17,537 nucleotides of DNA, from the NCBI GenBank assembly GCA_043821645.1, contig JBDRCO010000100.1, positions 1-17,537 of the forward strand, written 5' to 3'. Below are positions 1 to 15,853 of the stretch, in pieces (position 1 is the first letter of the stretch; each line of letters starts with the position of its first letter). Origin of the DNA: Pseudomonadota bacterium (GTDB lineage: Bacteria > Myxococcota > JACRCW01 > JAFGSX01). A program made the translations under genes and the position numbers. The notes under the pieces were generated by a model. The model was not told the DNA's origin and made no database searches. It was given only the letters and a program-made list of their open reading frames with translations.

Positions 1-729
1 CACGCGGCCCGGGCTGCGGGCGACGTAGGCCATGAGCTGCGCCGGCATCTCCGCCGGGGGCAGCACGTAGTCGACCAGGCCGGTGGCCATGGCGCTGCGC
101 GGCATGCCGTCGTGTTCGGTGGACGCAGGATTCTGCGCCATCACCATGCCGCCCTCGCCCTTGATCGCGCGCACGCCCAGGGTGCCGTCGCTGCCGGTGC
201 CGGACAGCACGACGGCGATGGCCTGCTCGTGCTGGTCCTGCGCCAGCGAGCGAAAGAAGAAGTCGATGGGCAGGCGCTGGCCGTGCGGCGCGCCCGGCTC
301 GAACAGCTGCAGGGTGCCGTTGACAAAGGCCATGTCGCGGCCCGGCGGGATGATGTAGGCGCAGTTGGGCTGCACCCGCACGCCGTCCTCGACCTCGCGC
401 ACCTGCATGCGGGTGTGGCGCTGTATCAGGTCGGCCAGCAGGCTCTTGTGATCGGGCGCCAGGTGCTGCACCAGCACGAAGGCCATGCCGGGCTCGCGGT
501 CCACGGGCATGGCCGCGAAGAAGGCCTCGAAGGCGGCCAGGCCCCCGGCCGAGGCGCCGATGCCGACCACGGGAAAGCTCGCGCTGGGGCTGCTCGCGGC
601 AGCGGGTTCGGCGGGGTCCTTTTCGCTGGCGGCAGGCTCCACGGGGTCGGGCGCGCCGGCAGCAGGCCTGCGCGGGGTGCGTGCAGTCTTCGTGGGCTTC
701 GCGGTCCTGGCGGATTTTTTAGGGCTCAT
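1..729 (-). CDS. CheB-type methylesterase domain protein, likely N-terminus of a CheB/CheR(-PAS) fusion; 3' end runs off the window
   Basis: My translation from ATG at 729 (GAGG 4 nt upstream) stays open to base 1: MSPKKSARTAKPTK...FPVVGIGASAGGLAAFEAFF...AFVLVQHLAPDHKSLL...RLPIDFFFRSLA...VVLSGTGSDGTLG...DGMPRSAMATGLVDYVLPP. The Ser/His/Asp triad motifs are intact and there is no N-terminal receiver domain, a pattern typical of CheB-CheR fusions. Absent from the ORF track because it has no stop in the window. Confidence 0.9.
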   Translation of the reverse strand, partial: MSPKKSARTAKPTKTARTPRRPAAGAPDPVEPAASEKDPAEPAAASSPSASFPVVGIGASAGGLAAFEAFFAAMPVDREPGMAFVLVQHLAPDHKSLLADLIQRHTRMQVREVEDGVRVQPNCAYIIPPGRDMAFVNGTLQLFEPGAPHGQRLPIDFFFRSLAQDQHEQAIAVVLSGTGSDGTLGVRAIKGEGGMVMAQNPASTEHDGMPRSAMATGLVDYVLPPAEMPAQLMAYVARSPGRV

Positions 730-921
730 GCTGCCTCGTGAGTGGCAGGGTACGCCCCTTGGCAGTGGATCGGAAGCGCCGGCAGGGGCGAGAAGAGAAC
801 GGCGAGGGCCAGCAGAGCCTTGCAGCCAGGCCGGGAATAAGCGCGCTTGTTCCTGGGACGTCCCTGCGCTACCCATACGCCCTCACCTGCAAGGAAACGT
901 GATCCAAAGGGCCGAGGCGTC

Positions 922-2151
922 ATGCCGACCACCGTCACCCTGGTTCTGGTCGTGGTCTTCTCCGTGCTGGCCAGCGCGGCGCTGGCGCGCTACGCCGGGC
1001 ACCGCGTGGTGCTCTCCGGCGCCGAGTACCTGGTCGTCGGCATGCTGCTGGGGCCGCTGGGCCTGCAGCTCCTCGACGACAGGGTGATGGAGCTGCTGCA
1101 ACCCTTCGTCTCCGTCATCCTGGGCGTGGTGGGCTTCTCCCTGGGCCTGGCCCTGCGCCACCGCCTGCAGAGCGGCTCCGCCCTGGGCGCGGGCTTGCTC
1201 GGGACAGGCATGGTCGCCTTCCTGGTGGCCGGGGGCTGCGGCCAGCTGTTCCGGGTGGCGCCCCTGCAGGGCCTGATCCCGGGCGACGGCTTCTGGCTCG
1301 CCATCGTGCTCGGGGCCACGGCCGCCGCGGTCTCCATGCACTTCATCGAGTCCAGCGCCCTGGCCTACCGCGCGGCCGGCCCCACCACCGAGCTGCTGCG
1401 CTCCTTTGCCCTGGGCGGCAGCGTGTTCGCGGTGGTGGCCTCGGGCACGGCCATTGCCATCAGCCGCGCCGGCCAGGCCTCCAACACCTACGGCCTGACC
1501 CCCACCGAGTGGCTGGTGGCGCTGGCGGTGCTGGGCGTGGCCTGCGGCCTGCTCTTCGCCATGTTCATGGGCCGCGCCCGCGAAGAGGACGACAGGCTGT
1601 TTCTGGCCGCGGTGGGCATCATCGCCTTTGGCAGCGGCGTGGGCCTGGCCGCGGGCATGTCGCCGCTGCTGCTCAACGCGCTGTCGGGCCTGATCATCTC
1701 GCTGGTCTCCGGCGACGCCACGGACCTGCACCGCAAGCTCACCCGCCTCGAAAGGCCGGCCACGGTGACGCTGATGATCCTGGCCGGAGCGCTGTGGCAA
1801 CCCACGGTCGGCCTGCTGTGGTTGCTGCCGCCGCTGTACCTGGTGCTGCGCGTGGTGCTGCTGCAGGGGGCCACCTCGCTGGCCCTGCGCGCCTTCACGG
1901 AGCTGCCGCGCATCCCGCGCCTGGGCTCGGGCCTGATCGCCCAGGGCAGCGTGGCGGTGGCGGTGGCGGTCAACTACGCGCAGGTCTTTCCCGAGCAGTC
2001 CGCCGTGATGTTGAGCACGGTGCTGGGCGCCGTGGTCGCCGGCGATCTGATGAGCAGCGGCTACCAGCGCGCGCTGCTGGCCGACGTGGGCGAGCTGGAC
2101 CGCGCCGTGGGGGACCCCGCGGGCGAGCCGGGCCGCGAGGAGGTCGCGTGA
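922..2151 (+). CDS. Cation:proton antiporter (CPA/Na_H_Exchanger fold)-like membrane protein, ~409 aa
   Basis: ATG at 922 with GAGG upstream is preferred over the TTG at 847. About 12 hydrophobic segments, with YLVVGMLLGP, GFSLGL and LIAQGSVAVAVAVNY paralleling YILGGVALGP, AGLELD and YLPQAGVTLGL in the CPA domain at 4974. The stop overlaps the trkA start (GTGA). Confidence 0.75.
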   Translation: MPTTVTLVLVVVFSVLASAALARYAGHRVVLSGAEYLVVGMLLGPLGLQLLDDRVMELLQPFVSVILGVVGFSLGLALRHRLQSGSALGAGLLGTGMVAFLVAGGCGQLFRVAPLQGLIPGDGFWLAIVLGATAAAVSMHFIESSALAYRAAGPTTELLRSFALGGSVFAVVASGTAIAISRAGQASNTYGLTPTEWLVALAVLGVACGLLFAMFMGRAREEDDRLFLAAVGIIAFGSGVGLAAGMSPLLLNALSGLIISLVSGDATDLHRKLTRLERPATVTLMILAGALWQPTVGLLWLLPPLYLVLRVVLLQGATSLALRAFTELPRIPRLGSGLIAQGSVAVAVAVNYAQVFPEQSAVMLSTVLGAVVAGDLMSSGYQRALLADVGELDRAVGDPAGEPGREEVA

Positions 2152-3509
2152 GGGTGGTGGTCGCCGGAGCGGGCGAGACGGGCCTGGCCATCGCGGTCAA
2201 CTTCACCAGCGGTGGTCACGACGTGATCCTGCTCGATCACAGCGTCGAGGCGCTGCGCCTGGCCGAGGAGTCGCTCGACGTCATGACCCTGGAGGGCGAC
2301 GTCACCCACCGCGACGTGCTGCACCGGGTCGAGGCCGGCAGCGCCGATGCGTTCGTCGCGGTGACGGCGTCCGACACCGACAACATCGTCGGCGCGGGCC
2401 TGGCCAAGCAGTGGGGTGCCCGCGTCGCCATCGCGCGCGCGGACGACCCGCGCTTTTATCCCTCGAGCGTCGGTGTCGAGCGCGGCCTGCTGGGCATCGA
2501 TGCGGTGTTCTGCGCCACCCGCCTGGCCGCGGCCGAGCTGGTCGGCCAGCTCGTCGGCATCCACCTGCGCCAGATCGGCAGCTTCGCCAGCTACAGCCTG
2601 CGCGCGGCCCTGGTGACCGTGGGCCAGGCCGAGGGCCTGACCGGCAAGCCGCCGCTGACCATCGCGCGCGTTCCCGGCGTGCGCCTGTGCGGGGTGGTCC
2701 GCGACGGCTTCGTGCGGCCGCCGGTCGACATCCCGCGCCTGGAGGCCGAGGACCAGCTGCTGCTGGTCGGAGATGCCGAGGCCTTTCTGGACGCCTGGGT
2801 CACGCTGCTGCCCGAGGTGGCGCGGCAGCGCATCCTCGTCGTCGGCGGCGGCGACGTGGGCGCGCTGCTGGCCCAGAGCCTGGCGCGGCGCTTTCACCGG
2901 GTCGAGCTGATCGAGCGCGATCGCGTGCGCGCGCAGGAGCTGAGCGAGGACCTCCCCGGCGTCACGGTGGTGCACGGCGACGCGCGCCAGGCCGCCTTTC
3001 TCAAGGACCTGCAGATCGATGCCGTCGGCTACCTGCTGGCGGTCACCCCCGACGACGAGATCAACCTGCTGGTGTCGCTGCTGGCGCGGCGCCTGGGCGT
3101 GCCGCACGTGCTGGCCCTGCTCAAGCAACCCGGTCACGCCGAGCTGTTCCGCGAGCTGGGTGTGCAGGGTGCCGCCGGCGCCTTCGAGGTGCTGGCGCGG
3201 GCGGTGCAGGACGAGGCCGTGCTCGCCGGCGCGGTGCGCGAGGTGGACATCCCCGGCACCGCCTACATGCTGCTGGAGTGGCGCCTGCCCGCGGGGCTGG
3301 TGGTCGAGGGCGAGCCCCCTCGCCTGGGTCAGCTGCCCCTGACCGCCGGGGCCTCGGTGGTCGCCATCGCCCGCGGCGCCCTGACCCCGGCGCCGACCCC
3401 GGAGCAGACGCTCGAGGGTGGCGTGTCCCTGGTGCTGAGCCTGCCGCGCCAGGAGCGCGATGAGCTGACGCGCCGCCTGACCCGGCTGCCCAAGGAGTGG
3501 CGCACGTGA
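2148..3509 (+). CDS. trkA: Trk potassium uptake system NAD(H)/nucleotide-binding regulatory subunit, ~453 aa
   Basis: GTG at 2148 after GAGGAGG, in the frame of ORF 1509..3509. Two RCK_N Rossmann motifs (VVVAGAGETG, ILVVGGGDVG), plus AVTASDTDN and AVTPDDEINL, and two RCK_C-like segments. Directly upstream of trkH. Confidence 0.92.
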   Translation: MRVVVAGAGETGLAIAVNFTSGGHDVILLDHSVEALRLAEESLDVMTLEGDVTHRDVLHRVEAGSADAFVAVTASDTDNIVGAGLAKQWGARVAIARADDPRFYPSSVGVERGLLGIDAVFCATRLAAAELVGQLVGIHLRQIGSFASYSLRAALVTVGQAEGLTGKPPLTIARVPGVRLCGVVRDGFVRPPVDIPRLEAEDQLLLVGDAEAFLDAWVTLLPEVARQRILVVGGGDVGALLAQSLARRFHRVELIERDRVRAQELSEDLPGVTVVHGDARQAAFLKDLQIDAVGYLLAVTPDDEINLLVSLLARRLGVPHVLALLKQPGHAELFRELGVQGAAGAFEVLARAVQDEAVLAGAVREVDIPGTAYMLLEWRLPAGLVVEGEPPRLGQLPLTAGASVVAIARGALTPAPTPEQTLEGGVSLVLSLPRQERDELTRRLTRLPKEWRT

Positions 3510-4954
3510 ACCGCCGCCGCGTGCTGGCGCTGACCGGGCGGCTGTTGCTGGTCGAGGCCCTGTTCTTGCTGGCGCCCCTGGGCCTGGCCGTGGTCGACGG
3601 CGAGCAGCGGGTGTGGGCCGCGTACCTGGCCGCCGCGGCCATCACCACCGCCTGTGCCATGCTCTTCATCTTCGTGGGCCGCCATACCCGGAACGACGAC
3701 CTGCACCGCAAGGACGCCTTTGGCACCGTCGCCCTGACCTGGCTCTGCCTCGGGGTGTTCGGCGGCCTGCCCTTCGTGCTCGACGGCTCCATCCCCGATC
3801 CTGCCGGCGCGCTGTTCGAGGCCTTCTCGGGCTTCACCACCACCGGCGCCACCGTGGTCGCCGACGTGGGCGCGCTCAACCGCGCCACCAACCTGTGGCG
3901 CTGCCTCATGCACTGGCTCGGCGGCATGGGTGTGGTGGTGCTGTTCGTCGCGGTGTTCCCGCAGGTCGGCATCGGCGCCAAGCAGCTGTTCCGCACCGAG
4001 GTGCCGGGCCCGTCGAGCGAGGGCCTCAAGCCGCGCATCAAGCAGACCGCGCTCACCCTGTGGTGGCTGTACGCCGCCCTCACCGCGCTGTGCGTGCTGG
4101 CCTTGTGGGCGCTGGACATGCCGCTGTACGACGCCGTGGTGCACGCCTTCTCGACCCTGGGCACCGGCGGCTTTTCGAACCGCAGCGCCAGCATCGGCCA
4201 CTACCAGTCCGCCGGCGTCGACTGGGTCACCTCGCTGTTCATGCTGCTCGCCGGGCTCAACTTCGGGCTGTACTACGGCGCGGTGCGCGGGCGCTGGCGC
4301 GAGCTGCTGTCCAACAGCGAGCTGCGTTTTTACCTGCTGGCCAACGCGGTGCTGGTGGCGGTGGTCAGCGCGACCATCTGGACGCGCCACGACGGGCTGC
4401 TCGACACCCTGCGCTATTCCGTGTTCCAGGTGCTGGCGGTGACCACCACCACCGGCTTCATGACCGAGGACTTCGACACCTACTCCGATCTCGCGCGGCT
4501 GATGCTGTTCTTCGCCATGTTCATGGGCGGCTGCGCCGGCTCCACCGCCGGTGGGCTCAAGGCCATCCGGGTGCTGCTGCTGCTCAGGCTGGCCGGGCGC
4601 GAGATCCTGAGCGCCGTGCAGCCCCAGGCCGTGCGCGCGCTGCGCCTGGGCGATCACGTGGTGCCCGAGGCCGTGCTGTCGGGGGTGCTGGTGTTCACCA
4701 GCACCTACCTGCTGCTGTTCAGCGCTGGAGCCGTGACCATGGTAGCCCTGGGCCAGGACCTGGTCACCGGCGCCAGCGCCACCATCGCCTGCCTGTCCAG
4801 CATCGGGCCTGGCCTGGCCGGGGTGGGGCCGGCGCAGAACTTCGGCGACATCCCGGCGGTGGGCAAGCTGGTGCTGAGCTTCTGCATGCTGGCTGGCAGG
4901 CTCGAGCTGTTCGCCCTGTTCGCGGTGTTCTCGCCGGCCTGCTGGCGACGTTAA
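3506..4954 (+). CDS. trkH: Trk potassium uptake membrane subunit, ~482 aa
   Basis: GTG at 3506 lies 8 nt after AAGGAG and overlaps the trkA stop (GTG at 3497 is an alternative start). Four pore-loop motifs SGFTTTGAT, STLGTGGFS, VTTTTGF and CLSSIGPG, plus WLGGMG, the intramembrane loop GGCAGSTAGGLK and the conserved GRLE. Confidence 0.95.
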   Translation: MNRRRVLALTGRLLLVEALFLLAPLGLAVVDGEQRVWAAYLAAAAITTACAMLFIFVGRHTRNDDLHRKDAFGTVALTWLCLGVFGGLPFVLDGSIPDPAGALFEAFSGFTTTGATVVADVGALNRATNLWRCLMHWLGGMGVVVLFVAVFPQVGIGAKQLFRTEVPGPSSEGLKPRIKQTALTLWWLYAALTALCVLALWALDMPLYDAVVHAFSTLGTGGFSNRSASIGHYQSAGVDWVTSLFMLLAGLNFGLYYGAVRGRWRELLSNSELRFYLLANAVLVAVVSATIWTRHDGLLDTLRYSVFQVLAVTTTTGFMTEDFDTYSDLARLMLFFAMFMGGCAGSTAGGLKAIRVLLLLRLAGREILSAVQPQAVRALRLGDHVVPEAVLSGVLVFTSTYLLLFSAGAVTMVALGQDLVTGASATIACLSSIGPGLAGVGPAQNFGDIPAVGKLVLSFCMLAGRLELFALFAVFSPACWRR

Positions 4955-4973
4955 AAAGGAGGGATCCCAAGCG

Positions 4974-7900
4974 ATGCGGCGCGTGCTGGTACTCATGGGT
5001 TTGCTCGGCCTGATGCTGAGCCTGCACGCCCTGCGCGTCGAGGGCAGCGACAGCGCTGTCGATCCTTTGACCCTGGCGGCCATCGGCTTCGTGGTGCTGG
5101 CCGCCTTCACCGTGGGCGAGCTGGCCACCCTGATCCGGCTGCCCCGGATCACCGGCTACATCCTGGGCGGCGTGGCCCTGGGGCCGCAGATCTCCGACGT
5201 GCTGTCGGTACGGGTGGTGGGCGAGATGAGCGTGTTCAACACGCTGGCGCTGGGCCTCATCGCCACCACCGCGGGCCTCGAGCTCGACCTCAAGGCGGTG
5301 CGCCGGGTGTGGCGTACCCTCGCCGCCACCCTGACCTTGAAGATCCCGCTGCTGCTGCTGTTCGTGGGCGGCACCTTCTTCGCCCTCGAGCACAACCTGC
5401 CCAGCCTCGGCATCGGCGATCCGCGCAGCTTGCTCGCGCTTGGCCTGATCCTCGCGACCCTGGGCATCGGCACCTCGCCGGCCATCGCCCTGGCGGTGAT
5501 CAACGAATCCGGTGCCCGGGGCCGTCTGTCCGACCTGACCCTGGCCATCGCCGTGGTCAAGGACCTGGTCGTCGTCCTGGCCCTGGCCGTGGCCCTGACC
5601 GCGGTGCGCGTGCTGATCACGCCCGAGGCCAGCTTCGGTTCCGAGGCGCTGCTCAAGGTGGCCGAAGAGGTGGGCGGCTCCTTGCTCATCGGCGGCGCCC
5701 TGGGCGGCTTGCTCATCCTGTACCTGCGCTTCGTCCACCGCTCGATGCTGCTCGCCGTCGTGGTGGCGGTGCTGCTCACCGCCGAGCTGACCGCGGCCCT
5801 GCACCTGGAGCTGCTGCTGGTGTTCATCACCGCGGGCTTCGTGGTGCGCAACTTCTCGAAGCACGAGCACGATCTGCTGCGGCCCCTGCGCCAGGTGTCG
5901 CTGCCCGTGTTCGTGGTCTTCTTCACCACCGCCGGCGCCGGGGTCGACCTGCTGGGGACCCTGCGCATCCTGCCCCTCGCCGTGGCCCTGACCCTGGGCC
6001 GCATGCTCGCCTTTGCTGTGGCCGGCCGCCTGGGTGCGCGGCTTGGCGGCGAGAAGCCCGTCGTGGGACACAACGCGTGGCTGGCCTACTTGCCCCAGGC
6101 GGGTGTCACCCTGGGCCTGGTGTTTTTGGCCGCCGCGGCCTTGCCCGACCTGGCCGATCCCATCCGCCAGACCGGCATGGCGCTGGTGGCGATCAACCTG
6201 CTGCTGGGCCCCATCGCCCTGGGCGTGGCGCTCAGGCGTGCGGGCGAGGTTCCCGGCAGCGAGCCCGCGACCGAGACCGCCGAGCCGGCCACGGCACCTC
6301 CTGCTGCCACCGAGCGCCTCGTCGACGCGGCCTCGACGCCGGCTGGGGACGCGTCCGCGCCGGCACCTCGCCCGCCCGCCCTCGAGAGGGAGCCGGTGCT
6401 GGCCCAGACCTGCGACGACCTCGCCGCCCGCCTCGACGCCATCTGCGGGCAGCTGGCCGACGAGGTGGTGGAGCCCTTGCTGCAGCAGGGGCTGCGGGTC
6501 ACCACCCGCCTGTTTGCCGACCTGGAGCGCAAGCACGGCGTGGCAGGAGCCCTGCAGTCGGCGCTGGCCTCGGCGCACCCGGACCTCGCCGAGGGACTGG
6601 AAGCCGAGCTGCGCCGTCGCTTTGTCGACGCCCGCGCCCTTCTCGACGCACTGCCGCGCGAGCTGGCGGTGCCGATGCGAGAAGAGCTCCTCGTCATCCA
6701 GGCGCGAGACAGCCTGACCACCCGCTGGCACAAGCGCCTGGGGCGGCTGGGTCGACGTCTGCGCAGGCGGCCGCAGATCCGTCAGGTCCCGCTGCGCATC
6801 GCCGCCTTCGTGGCCTACGAGCGGCGCCTGGCCGAGGTACTGGAGGCCCAGCGGGACGCCTGGTTCAGGACCCACCTGGCCATGCTGGCGCAGGTCCAGA
6901 TGCTGCTTCATGGCGGCCAGGACGCCGACAGCTGCCGTGCCGAGATCGGCCGCATCACCCAGCGGCACCTCGAGGTGTCGCGCAGCGATCTGGGCGGCGT
7001 GGTGCGCCGCGGCCACGACCAGCTCAGCCGGCGCCTCGAACGCCTCGCCGCGCCCGGGGATCCCGCCTCGTCGCTGCGCCTGTCGGAGACCGCGACCGAG
7101 ACCGCGGCGGCGCTGCGCCGGCTCGACGGGCGCGCGGCCGCCTGGCGCAGGCTGATCGACGACGCCGCCGCCAGGCTGCGCGCGTCGGCCGAGCTGGCCG
7201 TGGTCTCCACGACCATGCGCGAGCTCCTCGACGCCAGGGCGGGGCGCCCCCTGGGCGTGGTCGAGGACGACATCCTGCCGCTCGCCGAGGCGCTGCTGAC
7301 GCGACTCGACGCGCTGGTCAGCAGCATCGATCAGGCGACAGACCCGGCGGCGCGACGCGAGGTCAGCGAGCGCGTGCAGGCCCTGTTCACCCGCCACGAT
7401 CGAAATCGCCTGCGCGGGTTCAAGGCCAAGTACCGCCACGCCGCGCAGGTCGGCGAGCTGCGGCAAGAGCTGGCCCAGGCCCTGGAGAATGTCCCCGAGC
7501 GGCTGGAGATCCTGCGCGAGGACCTCGCCAGCCTCAGCGTCGTCGATCCCGGCGCCCTGACGCCGGACGAGGTGAAGCTGGCCCGCGCCTGCGAGGTCAT
7601 CCTGCTCGAGGGGCTGACCCCGCGCATCGCCGAGGTGCTGTCGACGATCTCGGAGCTGGTGGTGCTGGGCGAAGAAAGGCTCGAGGATGCGGCCGACTCG
7701 GTGGCCTACGGCCTGGACAACAAGGCAGAGGACGCCTCGGCCGAGGACTGGCCGGAGACCGCGCGCGAGGTCCTGAGCCGCGCCCGCGAGCGCATCGCCA
7801 GCCACCGCGACGAGCTGCAGGCCGCGCACGAGGCCGCGCGCGAGGGCTTGCTGCAGGTCGCCAACCGCGCCGAGGAGAGCCTGCGCGCCATCACCGACGA

Positions 7901-9191
7901 CCGCAGCGCCGGCGACAGGGTGCGCGCCTCCGCCCGCCAGACCACGCGCCTGGTGAGCCGCTGGTTGGAGGTGGGGCGCAAGGCCGCGCGACGGTCCTAT
8001 CGCCGCGCCACCGGCGTGGCCCTGCGCGCCACCCGCCGCCGCGGCGTGCGCGACTGGCTGATCCGCTCCGGCCAGACCCGCCTCGACGCCCTGGACATGG
8101 CCGGCTACCTGCGCCGCTTCTTCGCCGCCCCGGAGAGCTTTGACCTGCCGCGCCTGTACCTGCGCGCCTTCGAGCTGTCGCCGGTCGAGGACCCGCGGCT
8201 GATGGTGGCCTATCGCCAGGAAGCCGAGGATCTGGTGCGGGCACTGCTGCCCAGCGGGTCGGCGACGGCGAGCAACGCCCTGGTGGTCGGGGCCCACGGC
8301 AGCGGCCGCAGCTCGCTGCTCAACCTGGCCGAGCTGCGCCTGGCCCGCCAGCGCGCGGTGCGGCTGGACGCCCGCTACCACCGCCGCCGCGATGGCGTGG
8401 TGGGCGCCCTGGCGGCCGAGCTGGGGGTGGCCGCTTCGCTGCGCTCCATCGTGCAGCTGCTGCAGCGTCGCGATCACGTGATCCTCATCGACGACCTGGA
8501 GCACTACGTGCTGCCCACGCCCGAGGGCGTGGCCGAGCTGGAGCGCTTTGTCGAGCTGGTCGTCGCCACCAGTGAACGCACCCGCTGGGTGGTCTCCATC
8601 GAGGCCCAGACCCTGGCCCTGCTGCAGCCCCTGCTGCCCCTGGGTGCGGCCTTCGGGCGCCGCGTCCTGCTGCGCGCCCTGAGCTGGCACGAGATCCGCG
8701 AGCTGGTCGAGACCCGGCTGCGCCTGACCGGCTTCGAGCTGCGCTTCGAAAGCCGGCAGGTGCTGGGGCGAACCCTGACCCGCTGGCTGCAGCCCGGGCG
8801 CGACGACTACTACAAGGCCCTGTCCCGGGCGGCCGGCGGCAACCTGCGCGCGGCCATCCTCGGCCACCTGCGGCACCTGCAGCCCGTGTCCGAAAAGGCC
8901 CTGTCGACGCGCATGCCGGCGGTCACCCGCATCCCCTTCGTCGACCAGATCCCCCCCGAGGCCCAGGTGGTGCTGTCGCTGCTGCTGCGCTTCGGTCCGC
9001 TGCGGCGAGACGAGCTGGGCGCGGCGCTGTGTCGCCGGGCCGACGAGGTGGACGCGGCCCTGCTGCCGCTGCGCGACGCCGGGCTGGTGAGCAGCGACGG
9101 CGCCGACGAGGCCGTGCTGGTGCCCGGCCACCTCGAGAACGCGGTGGCGCATGCGCTGATGGTCCACGGCTCCTCGCAGGAGGTTCTCTGA
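4974..9191 (+). CDS. Cation:proton antiporter domain fused to a long helical region and a C-terminal P-loop NTPase/winged-helix module, 1405 aa
   Basis: AGGAGG at 4957-4962. aa 1-~425 are polytopic membrane with LPRITGYILGGVALGP, GTSPA, AVVKD, VFVVFFTTAGA and LPQAGV. A P/A/T/E-rich linker follows, then ~600 aa of L/E/R/A-rich helical sequence. Walker A-like LVVGAHGSGRSS (G at 8289), Walker B-like VILIDDLE (DD at 8490-8495), AGGNLR, and a terminal wHTH-like LLRFGPLRRDELGAAL...LRDAGLV. Confidence 0.85.
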   Translation: MRRVLVLMGLLGLMLSLHALRVEGSDSAVDPLTLAAIGFVVLAAFTVGELATLIRLPRITGYILGGVALGPQISDVLSVRVVGEMSVFNTLALGLIATTAGLELDLKAVRRVWRTLAATLTLKIPLLLLFVGGTFFALEHNLPSLGIGDPRSLLALGLILATLGIGTSPAIALAVINESGARGRLSDLTLAIAVVKDLVVVLALAVALTAVRVLITPEASFGSEALLKVAEEVGGSLLIGGALGGLLILYLRFVHRSMLLAVVVAVLLTAELTAALHLELLLVFITAGFVVRNFSKHEHDLLRPLRQVSLPVFVVFFTTAGAGVDLLGTLRILPLAVALTLGRMLAFAVAGRLGARLGGEKPVVGHNAWLAYLPQAGVTLGLVFLAAAALPDLADPIRQTGMALVAINLLLGPIALGVALRRAGEVPGSEPATETAEPATAPPAATERLVDAASTPAGDASAPAPRPPALEREPVLAQTCDDLAARLDAICGQLADEVVEPLLQQGLRVTTRLFADLERKHGVAGALQSALASAHPDLAEGLEAELRRRFVDARALLDALPRELAVPMREELLVIQARDSLTTRWHKRLGRLGRRLRRRPQIRQVPLRIAAFVAYERRLAEVLEAQRDAWFRTHLAMLAQVQMLLHGGQDADSCRAEIGRITQRHLEVSRSDLGGVVRRGHDQLSRRLERLAAPGDPASSLRLSETATETAAALRRLDGRAAAWRRLIDDAAARLRASAELAVVSTTMRELLDARAGRPLGVVEDDILPLAEALLTRLDALVSSIDQATDPAARREVSERVQALFTRHDRNRLRGFKAKYRHAAQVGELRQELAQALENVPERLEILREDLASLSVVDPGALTPDEVKLARACEVILLEGLTPRIAEVLSTISELVVLGEERLEDAADSVAYGLDNKAEDASAEDWPETAREVLSRARERIASHRDELQAAHEAAREGLLQVANRAEESLRAITDDRSAGDRVRASARQTTRLVSRWLEVGRKAARRSYRRATGVALRATRRRGVRDWLIRSGQTRLDALDMAGYLRRFFAAPESFDLPRLYLRAFELSPVEDPRLMVAYRQEAEDLVRALLPSGSATASNALVVGAHGSGRSSLLNLAELRLARQRAVRLDARYHRRRDGVVGALAAELGVAASLRSIVQLLQRRDHVILIDDLEHYVLPTPEGVAELERFVELVVATSERTRWVVSIEAQTLALLQPLLPLGAAFGRRVLLRALSWHEIRELVETRLRLTGFELRFESRQVLGRTLTRWLQPGRDDYYKALSRAAGGNLRAAILGHLRHLQPVSEKALSTRMPAVTRIPFVDQIPPEAQVVLSLLLRFGPLRRDELGAALCRRADEVDAALLPLRDAGLVSSDGADEAVLVPGHLENAVAHALMVHGSSQEVL

Positions 9192-9192
9192 C

Positions 9193-10107
9193 ATGCGCGG
9201 ACGGCGACCTGTGGTCGGGGTGATGGGCGGCGTGCTGGCACTGCTGGCGACGGGGCCCGGGCACGCCCAGGAACTCACCAGCGTCGCCCCCGCGGCCGAC
9301 GCCACGAGCCCCGTGGCCGAACACCTGGCCCTCGAGGCCGAACACCTGGTCACCGCGCTGCTGGGCAGCTCGGCCATTGGCCTGGTGCTGGTGCTGGTCC
9401 TGCTGTGGGGGCTCGCCTTCGCCCTGCGCTACACCATCCGGCGCCAGCGCTGGACCTCGCCCTCGACGCGACCCCTGCTGCTGCTCGGCAGCGGCGTGCT
9501 GGCGCTGCTGCTGACCCTGTCGCTGGTGGCGCGCCACGTCTACAGCGCGGCGCCCTGGATCGCGACCCTGCTGCTCATTGCCGGCTTCTCGGGGCTGGTG
9601 TTCGGCCTGGCCGCGCGCCTGCGCAGCTGGCTCGGTGGTCTGGTGATGCTGATGGCGGGCCGCGTGCGGCAGGGCGATGTGCTCGAGATCCAGGGCCGCG
9701 CTGGCACCATCGAGGCCCTGGGCCTGTTCTGGCTCACGCTGCGCGGCGAGGCCGGGGACGCGCGCTACCTGCCGGTGGCGGAGCTGGCAGACTCTCCGCT
9801 CTCCGTCTCCACCCCGCGCCGCGCCTATCCCGTCGAGGTTCAGCTGCGCCTCGGCGGCGCACCGCGCGAGGGGCACCTGAAGCGACTTCGCGCCCTGGCC
9901 ACGCTCTGTCCGTACCGGGATCCGCGCAGCGAGGTGCTGCTGCAACTCGACGCCGAGCCCGAAGGCAGCGTGCGGGTGCACTTCAGAGCCTGGTCCAGCG
10001 ACGCCGCCCGGCACGCGGCGCTGTACCTGCACCGGGGTCTGGAGCAGGCCGCGCAGACCTCGATAGCTGGACGGGAGCCGGAGGGATCCGAGATCGCGTC
10101 GGGGTGA
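9193..10107 (+). CDS. Divergent MscS-family mechanosensitive channel protein with a possible signal peptide, 304 aa
   Basis: Starts 1 nt after the previous stop, with AGGAGG at 9178-9183. N-terminus MRGRR-hydrophobic-GHA/QE resembles a signal peptide. Three TM segments, then LRSWLGGLVMLMAGRVRQGDVLEIQGRAGTIEALGLFWLTLRGEAGDARYLP, which matches the MscS beta-domain pattern. Confidence 0.75.
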   Translation: MRGRRPVVGVMGGVLALLATGPGHAQELTSVAPAADATSPVAEHLALEAEHLVTALLGSSAIGLVLVLVLLWGLAFALRYTIRRQRWTSPSTRPLLLLGSGVLALLLTLSLVARHVYSAAPWIATLLLIAGFSGLVFGLAARLRSWLGGLVMLMAGRVRQGDVLEIQGRAGTIEALGLFWLTLRGEAGDARYLPVAELADSPLSVSTPRRAYPVEVQLRLGGAPREGHLKRLRALATLCPYRDPRSEVLLQLDAEPEGSVRVHFRAWSSDAARHAALYLHRGLEQAAQTSIAGREPEGSEIASG

Positions 10108-10116
10108 GGAGATGAC

Positions 10117-10992
10117 ATGAGCGCTTTCGGGCATTCGCTGTGGGGCCTGCTCAACGTCGATCAGCTGGCGCAGTGGGTGGTGCAGCTGGTGCCCAGGCTG
10201 CTCAGCGCCGCGCTCATCCTGTTGCTGTTCTGGGTGCTGTGGCGCGTTGCGCGCGGGGCGATCCAGGCCCTGGGGCGCCGCGCCACCATCGACGCCACGG
10301 CGACGCGCTTTGTCGAGACCGTGGTGCGGGTGACGCTGCTGACCATCGGCGGGGTCACCGCCCTGGGCAAGCTGGGCATCAACACCGCGTCCATCCTCAC
10401 CAGCATGGGCGTCGCCGGCCTGACCATTGGCTTCGCCGCCAAGGACGCCCTGTCCAACATGATCTCGGGCCTGTTCATCTTCTGGGACAGACCCTTCGTC
10501 ATCGGCGACCTGGTCGAGATCGACGGCAAGTACGGCCGCGTCGACAACATCACCATGCGCTCGACACGGGTGGTCACGCCGGACGGCAAGATGCTGGCCG
10601 TGCCCAACAGCGTCGTCGTCAACTCGACGGTGGTCTCGTACACGAACTTCCCGCACCTGCGGCTGGACATCCCCGTCACCGTCAACGTGAACACGCACCT
10701 GGCGGCTGCGCGGCGCGCGCTGCTCGCGCTGTGCGCGGCGCAGGACTGGCTGATGAAGGACCCCGCGCCCGCGGTGCTGGTCACGGCACTCAACGACTAC
10801 AACGTCGAGCTCACCCTGCAGGCCTGGATAGAGGATGAGGCGCAGCACATCGTGCTCAGGGCGCGCCTGCGCGAGGCGGTGTTCGGCGCCCTCAACGCGG
10901 CGGGGGTCGACATGCCCTTCGAGACCCTGCGCATCGAGGCCGTGGCGCCAGCGGCCCCCGCGGTCGGCGCCGTCCAGGCCGCGCCATCCTGA
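10117..10992 (+). CDS. mscS: Small-conductance mechanosensitive channel (MscS family), 291 aa
   Basis: GAGGAG RBS. Canonical GVAGLTIGFAAKDALSNMISGLFIFWDRPFVIGDLVEIDGKYGRVDNITMRSTRVVTPDGKMLAVPNS and C-terminal AGVDMPF. Confidence 0.93.
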   Translation: MSAFGHSLWGLLNVDQLAQWVVQLVPRLLSAALILLLFWVLWRVARGAIQALGRRATIDATATRFVETVVRVTLLTIGGVTALGKLGINTASILTSMGVAGLTIGFAAKDALSNMISGLFIFWDRPFVIGDLVEIDGKYGRVDNITMRSTRVVTPDGKMLAVPNSVVVNSTVVSYTNFPHLRLDIPVTVNVNTHLAAARRALLALCAAQDWLMKDPAPAVLVTALNDYNVELTLQAWIEDEAQHIVLRARLREAVFGALNAAGVDMPFETLRIEAVAPAAPAVGAVQAAPS

Positions 10993-11005
10993 GGGCGCAG
11001 ATCGC

Positions 11006-11850
11006 TCAGCCCGGTGACGCCGTGAGCACGGGCTCGACGCTGGCCACGGTGCCGGCGGGGATGTCGACCCCGGCCTCGGCCGCGGCCAGGGGCAGCAGCG
11101 GCGCGTCGTCGTCGTCGGCCACCACCACCGCCGGATGGCGGCGGTCGCGGCGCAGCACGGTGAGGCTGAACAGCGCCTGCTCGTCGGGCAGGTGGCGGGT
11201 CAGTGCGAAGCCGACCCGGGACCAGCTCAGCAGCAGGCCGTACAGGGCGTTGCGCGCGCGCTTGACCTGGGCGCCGGGCAGCAGCTGTTCGCGCTTGCGG
11301 GTCTCCTGGCCTATCTCCGCCGCGGTCAGCTCCGCGATGGCGGTCTTGACCTCGGCCCGCAGCTCCTCGACCACGGCCGGTGCCCCCAGCTTGTCGCCGT
11401 GCCTGTCGAGCAGGCTGTAAAAGACCCGCGCCGGGGTCAGCACGTTGCTGGCCTCGCCCTGGCCGAAGTTGACGCTGAACAAGCGCGGGTCGGTGCCGGC
11501 GTTGCGCGCCAGCCGCACGCACACGTCGCGCGCCGTGATCAGCGCCTTGCGCTTGAGCACCTGCAGCTCGGTGAACGCGACCTGCTCCGAAACCAGGGTC
11601 TGCCGCTCGGCCGAGAAGTAGCCGCCCAGCTCGAGCAGGCGGTGGCCGGCGACCAGGTCCGCACTCGGTCGCCAAAGCCCTTGGCCTTGAACAGCGCGCG
11701 GTGGCGCCACACCACGGGCAAGGTGGCGAAGAACTGGTGCCCCAGGTCGTTGACCAGGTAGGTGTTGCCGGGCTCGGCGTACGTGCCTTGCTCGAGCAGG
11801 GCCTTGACCTGGTCCAGGGTGGGCTCGGTGCTGTCCTTGATCTCTATCAT
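11006..11850 (-). pseudogene. Hypothetical, mostly helical protein (~281 aa if intact) split by one frameshift near 11660-11667; true pseudogene or sequence error
   Basis: ATG at 11850 with GGAGG 5 nt upstream. ORF 11539..11850 looks protein-like up to ...LFKAKGFGD, and ORF 11006..11710 looks protein-like from ADLVAGHRLLELGG. The two are joined by 8 nt (cgagtgcg on the minus strand). The total span of 845 nt is one base short of a codon multiple. Confidence 0.7.
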
Positions 11851-11964
11851 CCTGTCCTCCCTTGGCCGGGCGCGGTGGGTCGGCCCGCCCCGGCCTGTGT
11901 TGTGATCATGGCCCTGACCTGCTCAGCGGCGACCCCGAGCCTGTCCCGGACCGACAGACAACAT

Positions 11965-12132
11965 CTAAGAGTGTGCTCACGAGAGCTAAGAGTGTTTTCA
12001 CGGTGACTCAGATCACAGTCACGCGTGGCCTGAGACACCTGATCCTGGGCCTGAGACAGCTGATCTCTGCCCTGGGGCCGCTGATCCTGCCCTGACTGCT
12101 GCTGATCCTGCGCGGGTGGCGGCTGATCCGAC
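11965..12132. repeat. Degenerate tandem array of eight 21-nt units
   Basis: Units: ctaagagtgtgctcacgagag / ctaagagtgttttcacggtga / ctcagatcacagtcacgcgtg / gcctgagacacctgatcctgg / gcctgagacagctgatctctg / ccctggggccgctgatcctgc / cctgactgctgctgatcctgc / gcgggtggcggctgatccgac. TCACG occurs at 11977, 11998 and 12019; CTGATC occurs at 12039, 12060, 12081, 12102 and 12123. Confidence 0.85.
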
Positions 12133-12264
12133 CGCGGCCGGCGGCGCGCTGCCACGAGCTGGCAGCGGCGTCGAACGCCGCATGAAATGAACGCGCCGAG
12201 CAGCACCTGGTGATCCCCCCGCGCAACAGGGGAGTTTGTAGCCCAGGCCGACCGCTCGCCTCTA

Positions 12265-12293
12265 TGGGGGATCTCCCTCAAAAAATGTCGCGA
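12265..12293 (+). repeat. Copy 1 of a hairpin plus 19-bp direct repeat (CCCTCAAAAAATGTCGCGA at 12275-12293)
   Basis: TGGGGG-ATCT-CCCTCA stem-loop followed by AAAAATGTCGCGA. The 19-mer is identical to 14900-14918 and overlaps the 12-bp palindrome ATGTCGCGACAT (12285-12296). Confidence 0.85.
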
Positions 12294-12670
12294 CATGGAC
12301 AGCGCACAGCCTGGCCCACGCAGCTGCGGGACCCGGGGCCAGGACCTGGTGGGTCAAGGGGCACCCTCCCGGCCGGTCGCCAGCGACCACAGCGGAGCTG
12401 TGCCGGGATCCGCGCGACCACGCGGTCAGCGCGCGATCACGCTCCCCGGCAGCCCGGGCCACCAGGTCATCCATATGAAATCTGGTGCTTTTTATGCCGT
12501 GCCCGAACACCCTGGGGACACCACTGGCCGCAGCGCGGGGCCACGTGGCCGGTTCACGTCCACGCCCAGGACCCGGGGCATGACACGTGCAACCTCAGCG
12601 GGTGGAGCAACCAGCAGGGGGCCTGCGCGGAGGCCCGAGAGTCGCCTTCGCCACGAGGTCAAGCCAGGAC

Positions 12671-14872
12671 ATGTCACAACAGCCAGGGATGGACGGGTCC
12701 GCGGGGACATGGACGCAGGCAGCCATCGACCAGGTGGCCCTGAACGAGGGCCTGCGCCGGCTGCTGGTCGGGCTCACAGTCCTGTTCGTGGTGTTTCCGG
12801 TGCTCGACGGCGTGACCCTGAGCGGCACCGCGGCGCTGGTGGTGTGCACCCTGGACGTCACACTGGCCATCGTGTTCGGCGCGGGCTTGCTGTGGCTCAG
12901 GCGACGACGCAGCCCTGTTCAACACCCCCATCCCTGGCTGGCCGCCTGCGCGCTGCTGACCGCCGCGAGCTCGCTGCTGACCTACACCATGGCGCCCGAC
13001 ATCTACCTCACCGGCTACCTGCTCATGATCGTCGTCGCCACGGGCAGCTTCATGCTGTCCTGGCGCTGGACCCTGGCCACCATCGCCCTGGTGCTGGGCG
13101 CGGGCTGGGGCGTCATCGGCCGCACCCTCGGTCCCCAGGACACCGCGCAGTGGGGTTTCTTGATGCTGGCGGCGCTGGCCATGGCGCTGTCCATCCTGCT
13201 GGCGCGGCGGGGTGTGCTGCGGCGCGTGGCCCTGCTGTCGCGGGAGGTCGAGGCGCGCGTGCGCAGTCAGGAGGCGACCCTGCAGCAGCTCGAGGCCGAG
13301 CTGACCGAGCGCCGCATCGCCGAGGAGAAGCTGCAGGCCGAGCGCGACGCGGCCGAGCAGATGGTGGAGACCGCGCCGGCCGTGGTGCTGCTGCTGGGGC
13401 TCGACGGCCGCCTGCTGCGCGCCAATTCGCGCCTGGGCCAGCTCACGGGGGTGCCCGTGGAGCAGGTGCTGGGACAGAACTTCTTTGGCCGCTTCATGCC
13501 CGGGTCGCCGCCGGCGCTGGGCGCCGACTGGTGTGGCCACATGCACACGGAGCACGGGGACAGGCCGGCGGTGGCGCCGGTGACCTGCGCCGACGGTGCG
13601 CAGCGCCAGGTCGAGTGGCACTGCTCGGATCTGCGCACGCGCTCGGGCGAGCGCACGGGGGTGCTGGCCGTGGGCCAGGACATCACGGCGCGCCTGCAAG
13701 CCGAGCGCGCCGCCGAGGACGCGCGCGAGCAGATGCTGCAGGCGCAGAAGATGGAGGCCGTGGGCCAGCTCGCGGGCGGGGTGGCCCACGACTTCAACAA
13801 CCTGCTGTGCGTGATGCTCAGCGCCACCGGCTTCGCCCTGGACGCGCTGCCCGCGGATCACCCGGTGCGGCAGGACCTGCGCGACGTGATGCACGCCAGC
13901 CAGCACGCGGCCAGCCTGACCCGGCAGCTGCTGGCCTTCAGCCGGCGCCAGATCTTGCAGCCCGCGGTGCTGGACCTCAACGACCTGGTGCGCAACCTGA
14001 GCAAGATGCTCGGCCGGCTGCTGGGTGAAAACATCGCCATCGAGCTGCAGCTGGGATCGGAGCTCGGCGCCATCAGCGCGGACCCGGGTCAGCTCGAGCA
14101 GGTGCTGCTGAACCTGTCGGTCAACGCCCGCGACGCCATGCCCGCCGGTGGCACCCTGACCATCGAGACCCACGCGGTCGAGCTGGACCCCGAGCAGGCG
14201 GCCAGGTTCCCGGGCATGAAGCCTGGCCGCTACGTGCGGCTGTGCGTCCGCGACAGCGGCTGCGGCATGGACCTGGCCACCCAGCGGCGGCTGTTCGAGC
14301 CCTTCTTCACCACCAAGCCGCCGGGCAAGGGCACGGGCCTCGGCCTGTCCACGGTCTTCGGCATCGTCAAGCAAAGCAACGGCCACATCCGGGTGCACAG
14401 CGAGCCGGGCCGGGGCACGGGCTTCGAGATCGACCTGCCGGCGGTCGACGGGGCACCCCTGCAGCACGGTGCGTCACCGTCGGAGGGTGGCCAGGGTGGC
14501 AACGCCACCGTGCTGCTGGTCGAGGACGATCCCCAGCTCAGGCGCATGGCCGAGCGCATCCTGAAGAAGGCGGGCTACCTCGTGCTCAGCGCCGCCGACG
14601 GCAGCGCGGCGCTGCAGCTGTACCAGAGCCAGGCGCCGAGCATCGATCTGATGCTGACCGACGTGGTCATGCCCGGCATGAGCGGCAAGCAGCTGGCCGA
14701 TCAGCTGCTGGCCCTGCACCCGGGGTTCAGGGTCCTGTTCATGTCGGGCTACACGGGCGACGCGATCGCCCACCACGGGATCCTGGAGCCGGGCATCCGC
14801 TTCCTCCCCAAGCCCTTTTCCGGGGAGCAGCTGCTGCGCGCGGTGCGCGAGGCGCTGGACGCGCCGGCCTGA
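12671..14872 (+). CDS. Membrane-bound PAS hybrid sensor histidine kinase/receiver (CckA-like), ~733 aa
   Basis: About 5-6 N-terminal TM helices, a coiled coil, PAS/PAC (ANSRLGQLTG...VLGQNF...GVLAVGQDIT), H-box QKMEAVGQLAGGVAHDFNNLL, N-box NLSVNARDAM, DSGCGM, FEPFFTTK, GTGLGL, and receiver motifs LLVEDD / LMLTDVVMPGMSG / FMSGY / FLPKPF. The start is uncertain (12587 GTG, 12671 ATG or 12689 ATG). Confidence 0.93.
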   Translation: MSQQPGMDGSAGTWTQAAIDQVALNEGLRRLLVGLTVLFVVFPVLDGVTLSGTAALVVCTLDVTLAIVFGAGLLWLRRRRSPVQHPHPWLAACALLTAASSLLTYTMAPDIYLTGYLLMIVVATGSFMLSWRWTLATIALVLGAGWGVIGRTLGPQDTAQWGFLMLAALAMALSILLARRGVLRRVALLSREVEARVRSQEATLQQLEAELTERRIAEEKLQAERDAAEQMVETAPAVVLLLGLDGRLLRANSRLGQLTGVPVEQVLGQNFFGRFMPGSPPALGADWCGHMHTEHGDRPAVAPVTCADGAQRQVEWHCSDLRTRSGERTGVLAVGQDITARLQAERAAEDAREQMLQAQKMEAVGQLAGGVAHDFNNLLCVMLSATGFALDALPADHPVRQDLRDVMHASQHAASLTRQLLAFSRRQILQPAVLDLNDLVRNLSKMLGRLLGENIAIELQLGSELGAISADPGQLEQVLLNLSVNARDAMPAGGTLTIETHAVELDPEQAARFPGMKPGRYVRLCVRDSGCGMDLATQRRLFEPFFTTKPPGKGTGLGLSTVFGIVKQSNGHIRVHSEPGRGTGFEIDLPAVDGAPLQHGASPSEGGQGGNATVLLVEDDPQLRRMAERILKKAGYLVLSAADGSAALQLYQSQAPSIDLMLTDVVMPGMSGKQLADQLLALHPGFRVLFMSGYTGDAIAHHGILEPGIRFLPKPFSGEQLLRAVREALDAPA

Positions 14873-14888
14873 GGGTGGCGCTCTGGCC

Positions 14889-14918
14889 TGAGGGTCGCAC
14901 CCTCAAAAAATGTCGCGA
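14889..14918 (+). repeat. Copy 2 of the hairpin plus 19-bp direct repeat (CCCTCAAAAAATGTCGCGA at 14900-14918)
   Basis: TGAGGGT-CGC-ACCCTCA is a perfect 7-bp stem, followed by AAAAATGTCGCGA. It lies in the short gap between convergent genes. Confidence 0.85.
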
Positions 14919-14944
14919 GGTGGGCACGAGGGGAGCGGGCGGCC

Positions 14945-15595: not shown

Positions 15596-15853
15596 GGTCA
15601 GCCCTCCCCGAGCACGCCAGCCCAGCCCTGTGTTAGCAGCACTGCGGGTGCCGGATCAAGCCAGCCCGTGAACGCGGCCGCGGGCGGGAGCACGGCGACG
15701 GCGCCACGGGGTGAATACCAACCGCGATCCCGGCCAGCTTTCGTGGCAGCGGCAGCACCGCGGGGTATCCTTTTATCGATAGTCAGAATGTAGAAAGCGA
15801 CGGGGTGGCCTGGATAGGGACAGTCAGGGCCGAATTGCCCGGCGAGGTGAGCG
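15596..15853. promoter_or_regulatory. Divergent intergenic region between the response regulator and the V4R-like kinase; probably holds both promoters
   Basis: 258-bp gap between divergent starts, with a locally AT-rich patch tatccttttatcgatagtcagaatgtagaaag (~15767-15798). No specific promoter boxes assigned. Confidence 0.45.

Follow-up and report, generated by a model that had tools for sequence, protein, structure and literature searches.

A conserved gene module of Myxococcota and Bdellovibrionota that may place a cation exchanger and an MscS-type channel under the control of an AAA+ tail

Control of K+ and turgor in bacteria is explained by parts that are regulated separately: uptake by Trk, Kdp and Kup, efflux through KTN-gated Kef, and release through the tension-gated channels MscS and MscL. 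The described systems closest in layout to the one reported here are, by analogy, regulated exchangers of the cation:proton antiporter (CPA) fold, namely KefC with its KTN domain and KefF, and SOS1 and SLC9C1 with their long tails. The locus in question lies on contig JBDRCO010000100.1, from a 7.07-Mb metagenome-assembled genome (MAG; about 72% G+C) of the Myxococcota, and the window that we analysed is this entire 17.5-kb contig. It contains six genes, g1, trkA, trkH, g4, g5 and g6 (Table 1), which a preliminary description had read as one co-regulated, possibly physically associated system for uptake, exchange and release of ions, with the NTPase g4 as its hub. The association of the genes is largely borne out by the present analysis, with corrections that concern g6, trkAH, g1 and the hub. 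On balance we favour the view that the Myxococcota and Bdellovibrionota share a conserved, hitherto undescribed module for ion homeostasis, which handles K+, other cations and turgor under nucleotide control, and that the locus is one of its copies. The core of the module would be g4, in which an AAA+ domain of the Orc1/Cdc6 type and a winged helix are predicted to sit on a stalk of about 600 residues beneath a CPA-fold exchanger domain, and g5 would be a dedicated MscS-type channel translationally coupled to it.

The arrangement goes beyond chance because it is conserved in other genomes, and not on the strength of the window alone. Full-length homologues of g4 (about 1400 aa) form at least 216 clusters, named only 'cation:proton antiporter' or KefB. 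For a census of gene neighbourhoods, taking one genome per species, 110 relatives were returned and 80 loci kept; these belong to Polyangiaceae, Nannocystaceae, Kofleriaceae, Bdellovibrionota MAGs and a few MAGs with other submitter labels, the Nannocystaceae carriers being Plesiocystis pacifica SIR-1, three Enhygromyxa salina strains and Paraliomyxa miuraensis. Neighbours were located by tblastn with the window proteins and by a g5 profile, and the upstream side was scored where at least 4300 nt upstream were present (67 loci). A gene-neighbourhood comparison had been proposed in the preliminary description as the way to learn whether trkAH, the second CPA and mscS accompany the g4 protein. 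At all 67 scorable loci g1 lies upstream of g4, and at all 68 loci whose sequence continues beyond the g4 stop codon g5 is the gene directly downstream, the remaining 12 of the 80 ending within g4 or 1 nt beyond it. The g5 open reading frame (ORF) overlaps the g4 stop codon by 4 nt at 25 of the 50 loci with a called g5 ORF, and the gene order is retained down to 24-27% g4 identity, in Bdellovibrionota. The association with trkAH is partial: the pair stands between g1 and g4 at 39 of the 67 loci and is missing from the g1-g4 arrangement at the other 28. The inclusion of g6 does not survive the comparison, since a canonical MscS gene was found by tblastn within 3.5 kb downstream of g4 at 4 of 65 loci.

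The genes that border the module were scanned at 39 loci, taking the nearest upstream and the two nearest downstream genes (117 of the 156 listed flank ORFs). None of these 117 flank proteins gave an MscS Pfam match in a scan that may have skipped genes, because the simple caller, based on third-position G+C, missed trkA in the window. Their content is variable and mostly metabolic and regulatory, and the module thus has sharp borders. At 7 of the 39 loci (L045, L047, L054, L070, L097, L106 and L110 in our numbering) the gene immediately before g1, on the same strand, is of the Asparaginase_2 family (Ntn-hydrolase), probably as synteny within one clade. Taken together, the census and the flanks define the conserved unit as g1-(trkA-trkH)-g4-g5, with g6 as a local addition.

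A wider unit becomes visible when the AAA+ tail of g4 is searched alone. At E<=1e-3 it matches 1316 cluster representatives, of which 442 remain at E<=1e-10; many are proteins of 900-1200 aa with the tail at the C-terminus and no recognisable N-terminal family. A paralogous pair is present in the window's own genome, on contig C136, where an MscS-family gene directly follows that for a protein with a signal peptide, a periplasmic coiled coil of about 570 aa, transmembrane (TM) segments and a related tail whose Walker A has the normal GKS; an Lgt gene lies upstream of the pair. Relatives provide 10 further loci with such a tail. At 8 of these tblastn places an MscS-type gene immediately behind the tail gene and on its strand (one match being weak); at a ninth, L122, the MscS-like gene is shown by Pfam, and L119 gives a weak match only. 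At one locus of the module itself, L074, g4 and g5 are joined in frame, so that the winged helix continues as two TM helices followed by an MscS beta domain. This fusion keeps the part of g5 from TM2 through TM3 to the beta domain and lacks the first g5 TM, and its membrane topology stays consistent because the number of passes leaves both ends cytoplasmic. The occurrence of the tail on other membrane proteins, again with an MscS gene directly behind them, together with the fusion, points to an invariant core that consists of an ATPase-tailed membrane protein and its own MscS-type channel. The earlier idea of the NTPase as a hub gains indirect support from these arrangements; the predicted complex of g1 and g4, considered below, is weak.

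The exchanger domain of g4 is detected by Pfam only when the N-terminus is scanned alone: residues 1-439 then match PF00999 at residues 42-389 (62.8 bits against a cutoff of 26.2, E 3.5e-17). The model predicted for these residues is a 13-helix CPA fold (predicted local distance difference test, pLDDT, 89.6; predicted template modelling score, pTM, 0.86) with helix breaks at 164-168 and 372-376, as in the crossing helices of NapA/NhaP-type proteins. Foldseek relates it to NapA (target-normalized score, TMt, 0.74-0.76), NHA2 (0.68), SOS1 (E 1.1e-9), SLC9C1 and KefC (8bxg_A; query-normalized score, TMq, 0.66). Whole g4 gave 0 matches to PDB sequences with phmmer, and the profile of its N-terminus reaches NHE6/NHE9 at E about 6e-6. 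According to those passages of Masrati et al. (2018; PMC6181914) that deal with the CPA motif, it comprises eight positions, known CPAs carry N-D, D-D or Q-D in TM5, and the essential TM5 aspartate, position 7 of the motif, is conserved in 94% of CPAs. The g4 protein has this aspartate, D197, opposite the D of the NHE 'ND' motif in the alignment; it has neither the classical ND (CPA1) or DD (CPA2) pair nor the Asp of the TM4 A-T-D motif. The TM5 pair is instead K196-D197 (nt 5559-5564), each residue being present in 63 of 64 full-length homologues, and the unwound motif of TM4 is G-T-S-P, in which T167 and S168 are each conserved in 64 of 64 and S168 sits where NHE and Na+ exchangers carry Asp. 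A further residue, R343, is invariant in alignments of 20 and of 43 rows; the order of helices in the model places it in what we infer to be TM10. Our guess that the ion is K+ draws on the Kef-like small residues of TM4 and on the association with TrkAH.

The gene types named in the preliminary description are confirmed by Pfam and NCBIfam for TrkA, TrkH, the MscS-like g5 and the MscS g6, whereas the CPA-like nature of g1 emerges only from profile-profile comparison. This protein has no Pfam match even at E<10, and its pairwise BLASTP alignment with the N-terminus of g4 is not significant (E 0.058); the hhalign comparison of the g1 profile with that of the g4 N-terminus gives a probability of 99.5% and an E of 4.9e-23 over 388 columns. 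Judged by these profiles, g1 is a paralogue of the g4 membrane domain with the CPA fold. It had been taken for a second CPA, and it is the fold that stands; a second exchanger is doubtful because the transport aspartate is mostly missing. The g1 column aligned to D197 of g4 holds Q 25, E 7, N 6, S 3, D 1 and G 1 (n=43), so that an acidic residue occurs in 8 of 43, and g1 is probably a non-transporting partner subunit and not a transporter alone.

A structure prediction of g1 together with residues 1-439 of g4 gives what we grade as weak support for a complex, with an interface score (ipSAE) of 0.45 against 0.00 for the best of 3 controls, at least 87% contact agreement between runs and a partner pLDDT of at least 71. 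The mark applied to this score is reached by 116 of 157 solved complexes and by 2 of 215 mismatched pairs, and those that reach it with a score of <=0.60 comprise 18 of the 157 solved complexes and both of the passing mismatches. The CPA exchangers are known dimers, and for this reason the pass may reflect mere likeness to solved dimers. Five loci of relatives (L028, L031, L032, L033 and L034) carry a g1-like gene next to a g4N-like one, each of about 400-530 aa by longest-ORF estimates and with no stalk or ATPase tail. Such tail-less pairs, which in several relatives measure some 400-450 aa per protein, suggest that the pairing of CPA paralogues predates the fusion to the tail, and they may be the ancestral paired-CPA form.

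The g5 protein matches PF00924 at E 1.4e-5 (25.6 bits against a cutoff of 20.2), as do 42 of 43 g5 homologues, and its profile aligns with residues 28-170 of Escherichia coli MscS at E 6e-15 and with MscK/MscM at about 1e-8 to 1e-9. It has a signal-like N-terminus, 3 TM, a beta domain and a C-terminal domain with a conserved LCPYR motif. On this sequence evidence g5, though divergent, truly belongs to the MscS family, and channel activity is predicted for it. The downstream g6 is the more conventional protein, with four MscS Pfam domains (PF00924 at E 7.3e-19) and matches to the NCBIfam MscS models at E 6.4e-38.

Of the alternatives to a nucleotide-controlled module, the one that survives best is that the locus is a set of independent ion-transport genes, co-located for co-regulation under osmotic stress, with no complex and no control of the channel by the AAA+ protein. 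Each recognisable part does come from a family that works alone elsewhere, trkAH comes and goes, and the prediction for g1 and g4 is weak. Yet g1 and g5 are never absent (67/67 and 68/68) from between flanks that vary, and g4 stop and g5 start overlap by 4 nt in half of the loci with a called g5 ORF. The pairing of tail and MscS gene recurs with unrelated N-terminal domains and is once an in-frame fusion, and g1, mostly without the transport aspartate, is unlikely to work alone. We therefore consider that independence of the genes is unlikely.

Between the exchanger domain and the tail, g4 has a disordered linker rich in Pro and Ala, and then the stalk (residues ~460-1055, about 600 aa), modelled as very long helices of 39-67 residues with a pLDDT mostly above 85. 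The stalk matched no Pfam family below E 0.05, had no usable match in the protein atlas, and in the structure search matched only designed helical bundles; an internal duplication was not confirmed at the split that was compared (hhalign of residues 30-300 with 301-545 in model numbering, probability 3.4%, E 0.013). The Pfam matches of the tail are weak, namely nSTAND1 (26.9 bits for the isolated tail, against a cutoff of 27.1), AAA_22 and AAA_16. With VIA-align the model superposes on Cdc6 (7jgr_G) with Z 17.2 and a root-mean-square deviation of 3.6 for 241 aligned residues, and on archaeal Orc1/Cdc6 (2qby_A) with Z 16.7 for 291 residues that take in base, lid and winged helix (model residues 620-960). 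RuvB, RFC, BrxC, MuB and TnsC rank below Cdc6/Orc1; Foldseek finds RuvB and ORC at E of about 1e-5 to about 2e-5. The tail as modelled has the base, lid and C-terminal winged helix of an Orc1/Cdc6-like protein.

The nucleotide-binding motifs of the tail are only partly conventional. Walker A in the window reads GAHGSGRSS (nt 8289-8315) and departs from GxxGxGK[ST] by an Arg for the catalytic Lys; across the family this position is K in 32, R in 31 and M in 1 (n=64), and no link was seen between the Lys or Arg state and the presence of trkAH. Walker B, ILIDD, conforms to hhhhD[DE], with D1173 conserved in 63 of 64 and the next position D in 42, N in 17, G in 4 and E in 1, and R1248 is invariant among the 64 full-length homologues. 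By analogy with what is generally known of K-to-R changes in Walker A, copies of the Arg type, as here, probably bind nucleotide without efficient hydrolysis.

An Orc1/Cdc6 architecture that includes a winged helix also fits a second alternative, in which the locus encodes a membrane-tethered sensor and transcription regulator, the CPA-like part acting as a 'transceptor' for ions and the AAA+ and winged-helix tail binding DNA, in the manner of Orc1/Cdc6 or MarR-type winged helices, and so regulating genes of ion homeostasis. Some homologues match helix-turn-helix models of the MarR type (PF12802), g1 looks transport-dead, and the TM5 motif of g4 is atypical. However, the retention in g4 of the essential Asp, the unwound-helix motifs and the invariant TM Arg argues for real ion binding or transport, and neither the strict pairing with a channel gene nor the fusion is predicted by a DNA-binding role, which we regard as quite unlikely. 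A conserved operator was not found either, no search aimed at one having been made. That the genes form an anti-phage or abortive-infection system, with a STAND/AAA+ sensor NTPase that triggers the channel and the exchanger and so collapses ion gradients, is very unlikely: an NTPase with a membrane effector is a common layout of defence systems, the tail narrowly misses the nSTAND1 threshold, and among many AAA+ proteins it resembles BrxC (Z 14.7) and the AVAST5 filament (Z 12.6), but Orc1/Cdc6 outrank the defence ATPases structurally, PADLOC-DB 2.0 gives 0 families for g1, trkH, g4, g5 and g6 at E<=0.01 and weak Rossmann-type matches only for trkA, and the module is tied to TrkAH and has scanned flank genes that are mostly metabolic or regulatory.

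The potassium-uptake genes are, in themselves, ordinary. TrkA contains two stretches of PF02254 (TrkA_N, E 3e-40) and aligns with NCBIfam NF007039 over residues 1-445 at E 4.3e-73, with 246.6 bits below the cutoff of 293; TrkH matches PF02386 at E 7e-58 and the NCBIfam TrkH models at E 7e-101 and 5.6e-93, both under the cutoffs. The locus thus has a tandem-RCK TrkA with an adjacent TrkH, in full-length alignment with the NCBIfam models, albeit at scores short of equivalog level. The module TrkH is 54-63% identical to module copies of the Myxococcota type and 46% identical to the second TrkH of its own genome, which lies beside a trkA on contig C52; with an ordinary trkA-trkH pair elsewhere in the genome, the copy in the module is an extra one. 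A FastTree phylogeny of 64 g4 proteins requires at least 8 changes in the presence of trkAH, and in it the window is the sole row with trkAH in a well-supported clade of 12 rows. The pair is a recurrent but dispensable insert.

The junctions between the six genes are as first described: GTGA overlaps at 2148-2151 and 3506-3509, and gaps of 19 nt (4955-4973), 1 nt (9192) and 9 nt (10108-10116), all of which agree with the ORF listing and the junction sequences. The start codon of trkA is a GTG that overlaps the g1 stop codon within the GTGA. The ribosome-binding sites also noted there can be recognized as purine-rich, Shine-Dalgarno-like runs upstream of each start (GAGGAGG, AAGGAG, AAGGAGG, GGAGG and GAGGAG). 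The ATG at 922 is supported as the start of g1 by 42 homologues that align with M1 and the residues next to it. Given the gap of 9 nt, g6 is probably co-transcribed here. A consensus scan found no sigma-70-like promoter, and the terminator-like sites (6 observed against 2.8 +/- 1.9 expected) are uninformative. A search of sequencing runs listed none that contains RNA of this stretch, two metatranscriptome runs from one study having next to none of its sequence words.

Table 1. Coordinates of the module and its neighbours in the window, and of related loci on other contigs
Feature	Position	Strand	Description
g1	922-2151	+	409-aa multi-pass membrane protein, diverged CPA-fold paralogue of the g4 N-terminus
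trkA	2148-3509	+	453 aa, tandem-RCK regulatory subunit of Trk K+ uptake
trkH	3506-4954	+	482 aa, K+ translocating subunit
g4	4974-9191	+	1405 aa: CPA exchanger domain, helical stalk, AAA+ tail
g4 N-terminal CPA domain	4974-6290	+	residues 1-439
g4 linker and helical stalk	6291-8138	+	residues ~440-1055
g4 C-terminal AAA+ module (base, lid, winged helix)	8139-9191	+	residues ~1056-1399
g5	9193-10107	+	304-aa divergent MscS-family protein
g6	10117-10992	+	291-aa canonical MscS
CheB methylesterase gene	1-876	-	divergent from g1, runs off the contig end
234-aa ORF	11006-11710	-	convergent with g6
PAS hybrid histidine kinase	12587-14872	+	
LuxR-type response regulator	14945-15595	-	
Second histidine kinase	15854 to contig end	+	
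g4-g5 in-frame fusion	L074, 10001-14548	+	winged helix into two TM helices and MscS beta domain
Paralogous pair of the window's genome	L117 (G000 contig C136), 2669-6274, 1701-2657	-	1202-aa tail protein, then 319-aa MscS-family gene
TrkH, tail protein, MscS-like	L122 (G032), 1985-8291	-	1055-aa tail protein (no recognisable N-terminal family), 499-aa MscS-like
AI-2E transporter, trkA, trkH, CPA-AAA+, MscS-like	L025 (G039:C80), 4757-14482	-	1485-aa CPA-AAA+, 395-aa MscS-like; no g1

Upstream, the module is bordered by the divergent CheB gene, whose first ~100 residues gave no match to a receiver domain at E<=0.001. The starts of CheB and g1 are 45 nt apart, which leaves very little space for two divergent promoters. 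Downstream, the stop codons of g6 and the convergent 234-aa ORF are 13 nt apart; this ORF is likely to be coding because its third-position G+C is 0.93, and it has no match in Pfam or PADLOC. Further downstream is a two-component cluster (12587-17536). Kinases also occur near the module elsewhere, as hybrid kinases in L062 and L071 and as a kinase with a response regulator in L106.

How a nucleotide-controlled module of this composition might work can be sketched as follows. The exchanger domain of g4 and g1 would most likely pair as an asymmetric dimer, and the AAA+ tail would read the nucleotide state, probably as a binding switch and not as a motor in the Arg-type copies. Through the stalk, the tail could then set the activity of the exchanger domain, probably a K+/H+ exchanger, and of the partner MscS-like release valve, while the dedicated TrkAH, inserted between g1 and g4 in over half of the lineages, would supply the matching K+ influx. 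Uptake of K+, exchange of cations for H+ and release of solutes would in this way be matched to one another when osmotic or ionic conditions shift. A bolder version, which we put forward very tentatively, has the AAA+ tails of g4 assembled as a ring or an arc below the cytoplasmic cage of a heptameric g5, giving a nucleotide-gated valve in a supercomplex with the asymmetric g1/g4 exchanger and, where present, TrkAH. Were this so, K+ content and turgor would be set by the energy state of the cell, and g5 and g4 would be, respectively, the first ATPase-controlled channel of the MscS family and the first AAA+-regulated secondary transporter.

Several points weigh against such a module. The co-transcription of the six genes is inferred from their spacing only. 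The Arg in the Walker A of the window, where half of the family has Lys, means that there is maybe no single nucleotide mechanism, and the winged helix of g4 could bind DNA instead of protein. With a Lys beside the Asp in TM5 and no Asp in TM4, the CPA motif of g4 is atypical enough to make both exchange activity and ion specificity guesses. As trkAH is absent from 28 of the 67 loci and has changed so often, K+ uptake is not obligatory to the module. The fusion at L074 is known from a single MAG contig, where an assembly error or a frameshift could have produced it, and the census loci, coming from related species, are not independent samples, so that the counts overstate independence.

The module nonetheless brings the genes for uptake, exchange and release together in a unit that is conserved and translationally coupled. 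Control of the exchanger or the channel by the tail, if it exists, would add a new principle to the regulation of secondary transporters and mechanosensitive channels, and it would provide a handle on how predatory and social bacteria of soil or sea handle ionic shifts. Full-text literature searches, judged by titles and abstracts, found no description of the CPA-AAA+ fusion, of the operon or of an ATPase-coupled MscS. The question is testable because cultured carriers exist, among them Enhygromyxa salina, Plesiocystis pacifica and Paraliomyxa miuraensis.

Among known systems, KefC and KefB with KefF and KefG (CPA2) share with g4 a CPA membrane domain, a cytosolic tail that is nucleotide-binding and regulatory in Kef and is predicted to be so in g4, and an ancillary subunit; the g4 model matches KefC 8bxg_A, as given above. 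The small Ser/Thr residues in place of Asp in TM4 of g4 recall the Kef-like L-S-S-T motif, as given in the motif passages of PMC6181914. The tail of g4, however, is an Orc1/Cdc6-like AAA+ module on a stalk of about 600 aa and not KTN/RCK, and the TM5 pair is K-D, not Q-D; TrkA_N, the signature of the Kef KTN/RCK domain, had no match in g4, either as a whole or cut into three pieces for the scan. The partners of g4 are a CPA pseudo-paralogue and an MscS-type channel and not a protein of the KefF/G type, for which the window ORFs scanned gave no Pfam match. In plant SOS1 and sperm SLC9C1, too, a large cytosolic C-terminal region controls the exchanger, to judge from entry titles that speak of an 'auto-inhibited state' and of cAMP-bound states. 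Their tails are autoinhibitory, cyclic-nucleotide-binding or voltage-sensing, in contrast to the AAA+ tail of g4, and they are without a dedicated channel partner or a degenerate paralogue subunit; the resemblance is one of layout by analogy and not of shared tail ancestry.

With the MscS family, including MscK/MscM (KefA), g5 shares the pore helix and beta domain, but it belongs to a divergent subfamily whose members are 13-34% identical, has its own C-terminal LCPYR motif and is always encoded behind an AAA+-tailed protein. To our knowledge, no MscS-family channel is known to be ATPase-coupled. The pair on contig C136, a protein with a periplasmic coiled coil and TM segments followed by an MscS gene, resembles a split version of the MscK layout. 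With the ATPases of the Orc1/Cdc6 initiator clade, as with RuvB, RFC, BrxC, TnsC and MuB, the tail of g4 shares the three-part AAA+ build, the Walker B hhhhDD and an invariant Arg (R1248); it differs in being membrane-tethered by fusion to a secondary transporter, in the change of the Walker A Lys to Arg in this copy and its relatives (31/64), and in a sequence identity to solved proteins of merely 9-18%. The trkA and trkH genes have the domain content and gene order of any TrkAH system, and what sets them apart is their place between g1 and g4 as a second copy in the genome, with a TrkH nearer to other module copies than to the genome's other copy. What is new is thus the combination of known families, an exchanger, an Orc1/Cdc6-type AAA+ module, an MscS-type channel and TrkAH, in what we propose is one ion-homeostasis system, whose central protein the databases label 'cation:proton antiporter'.

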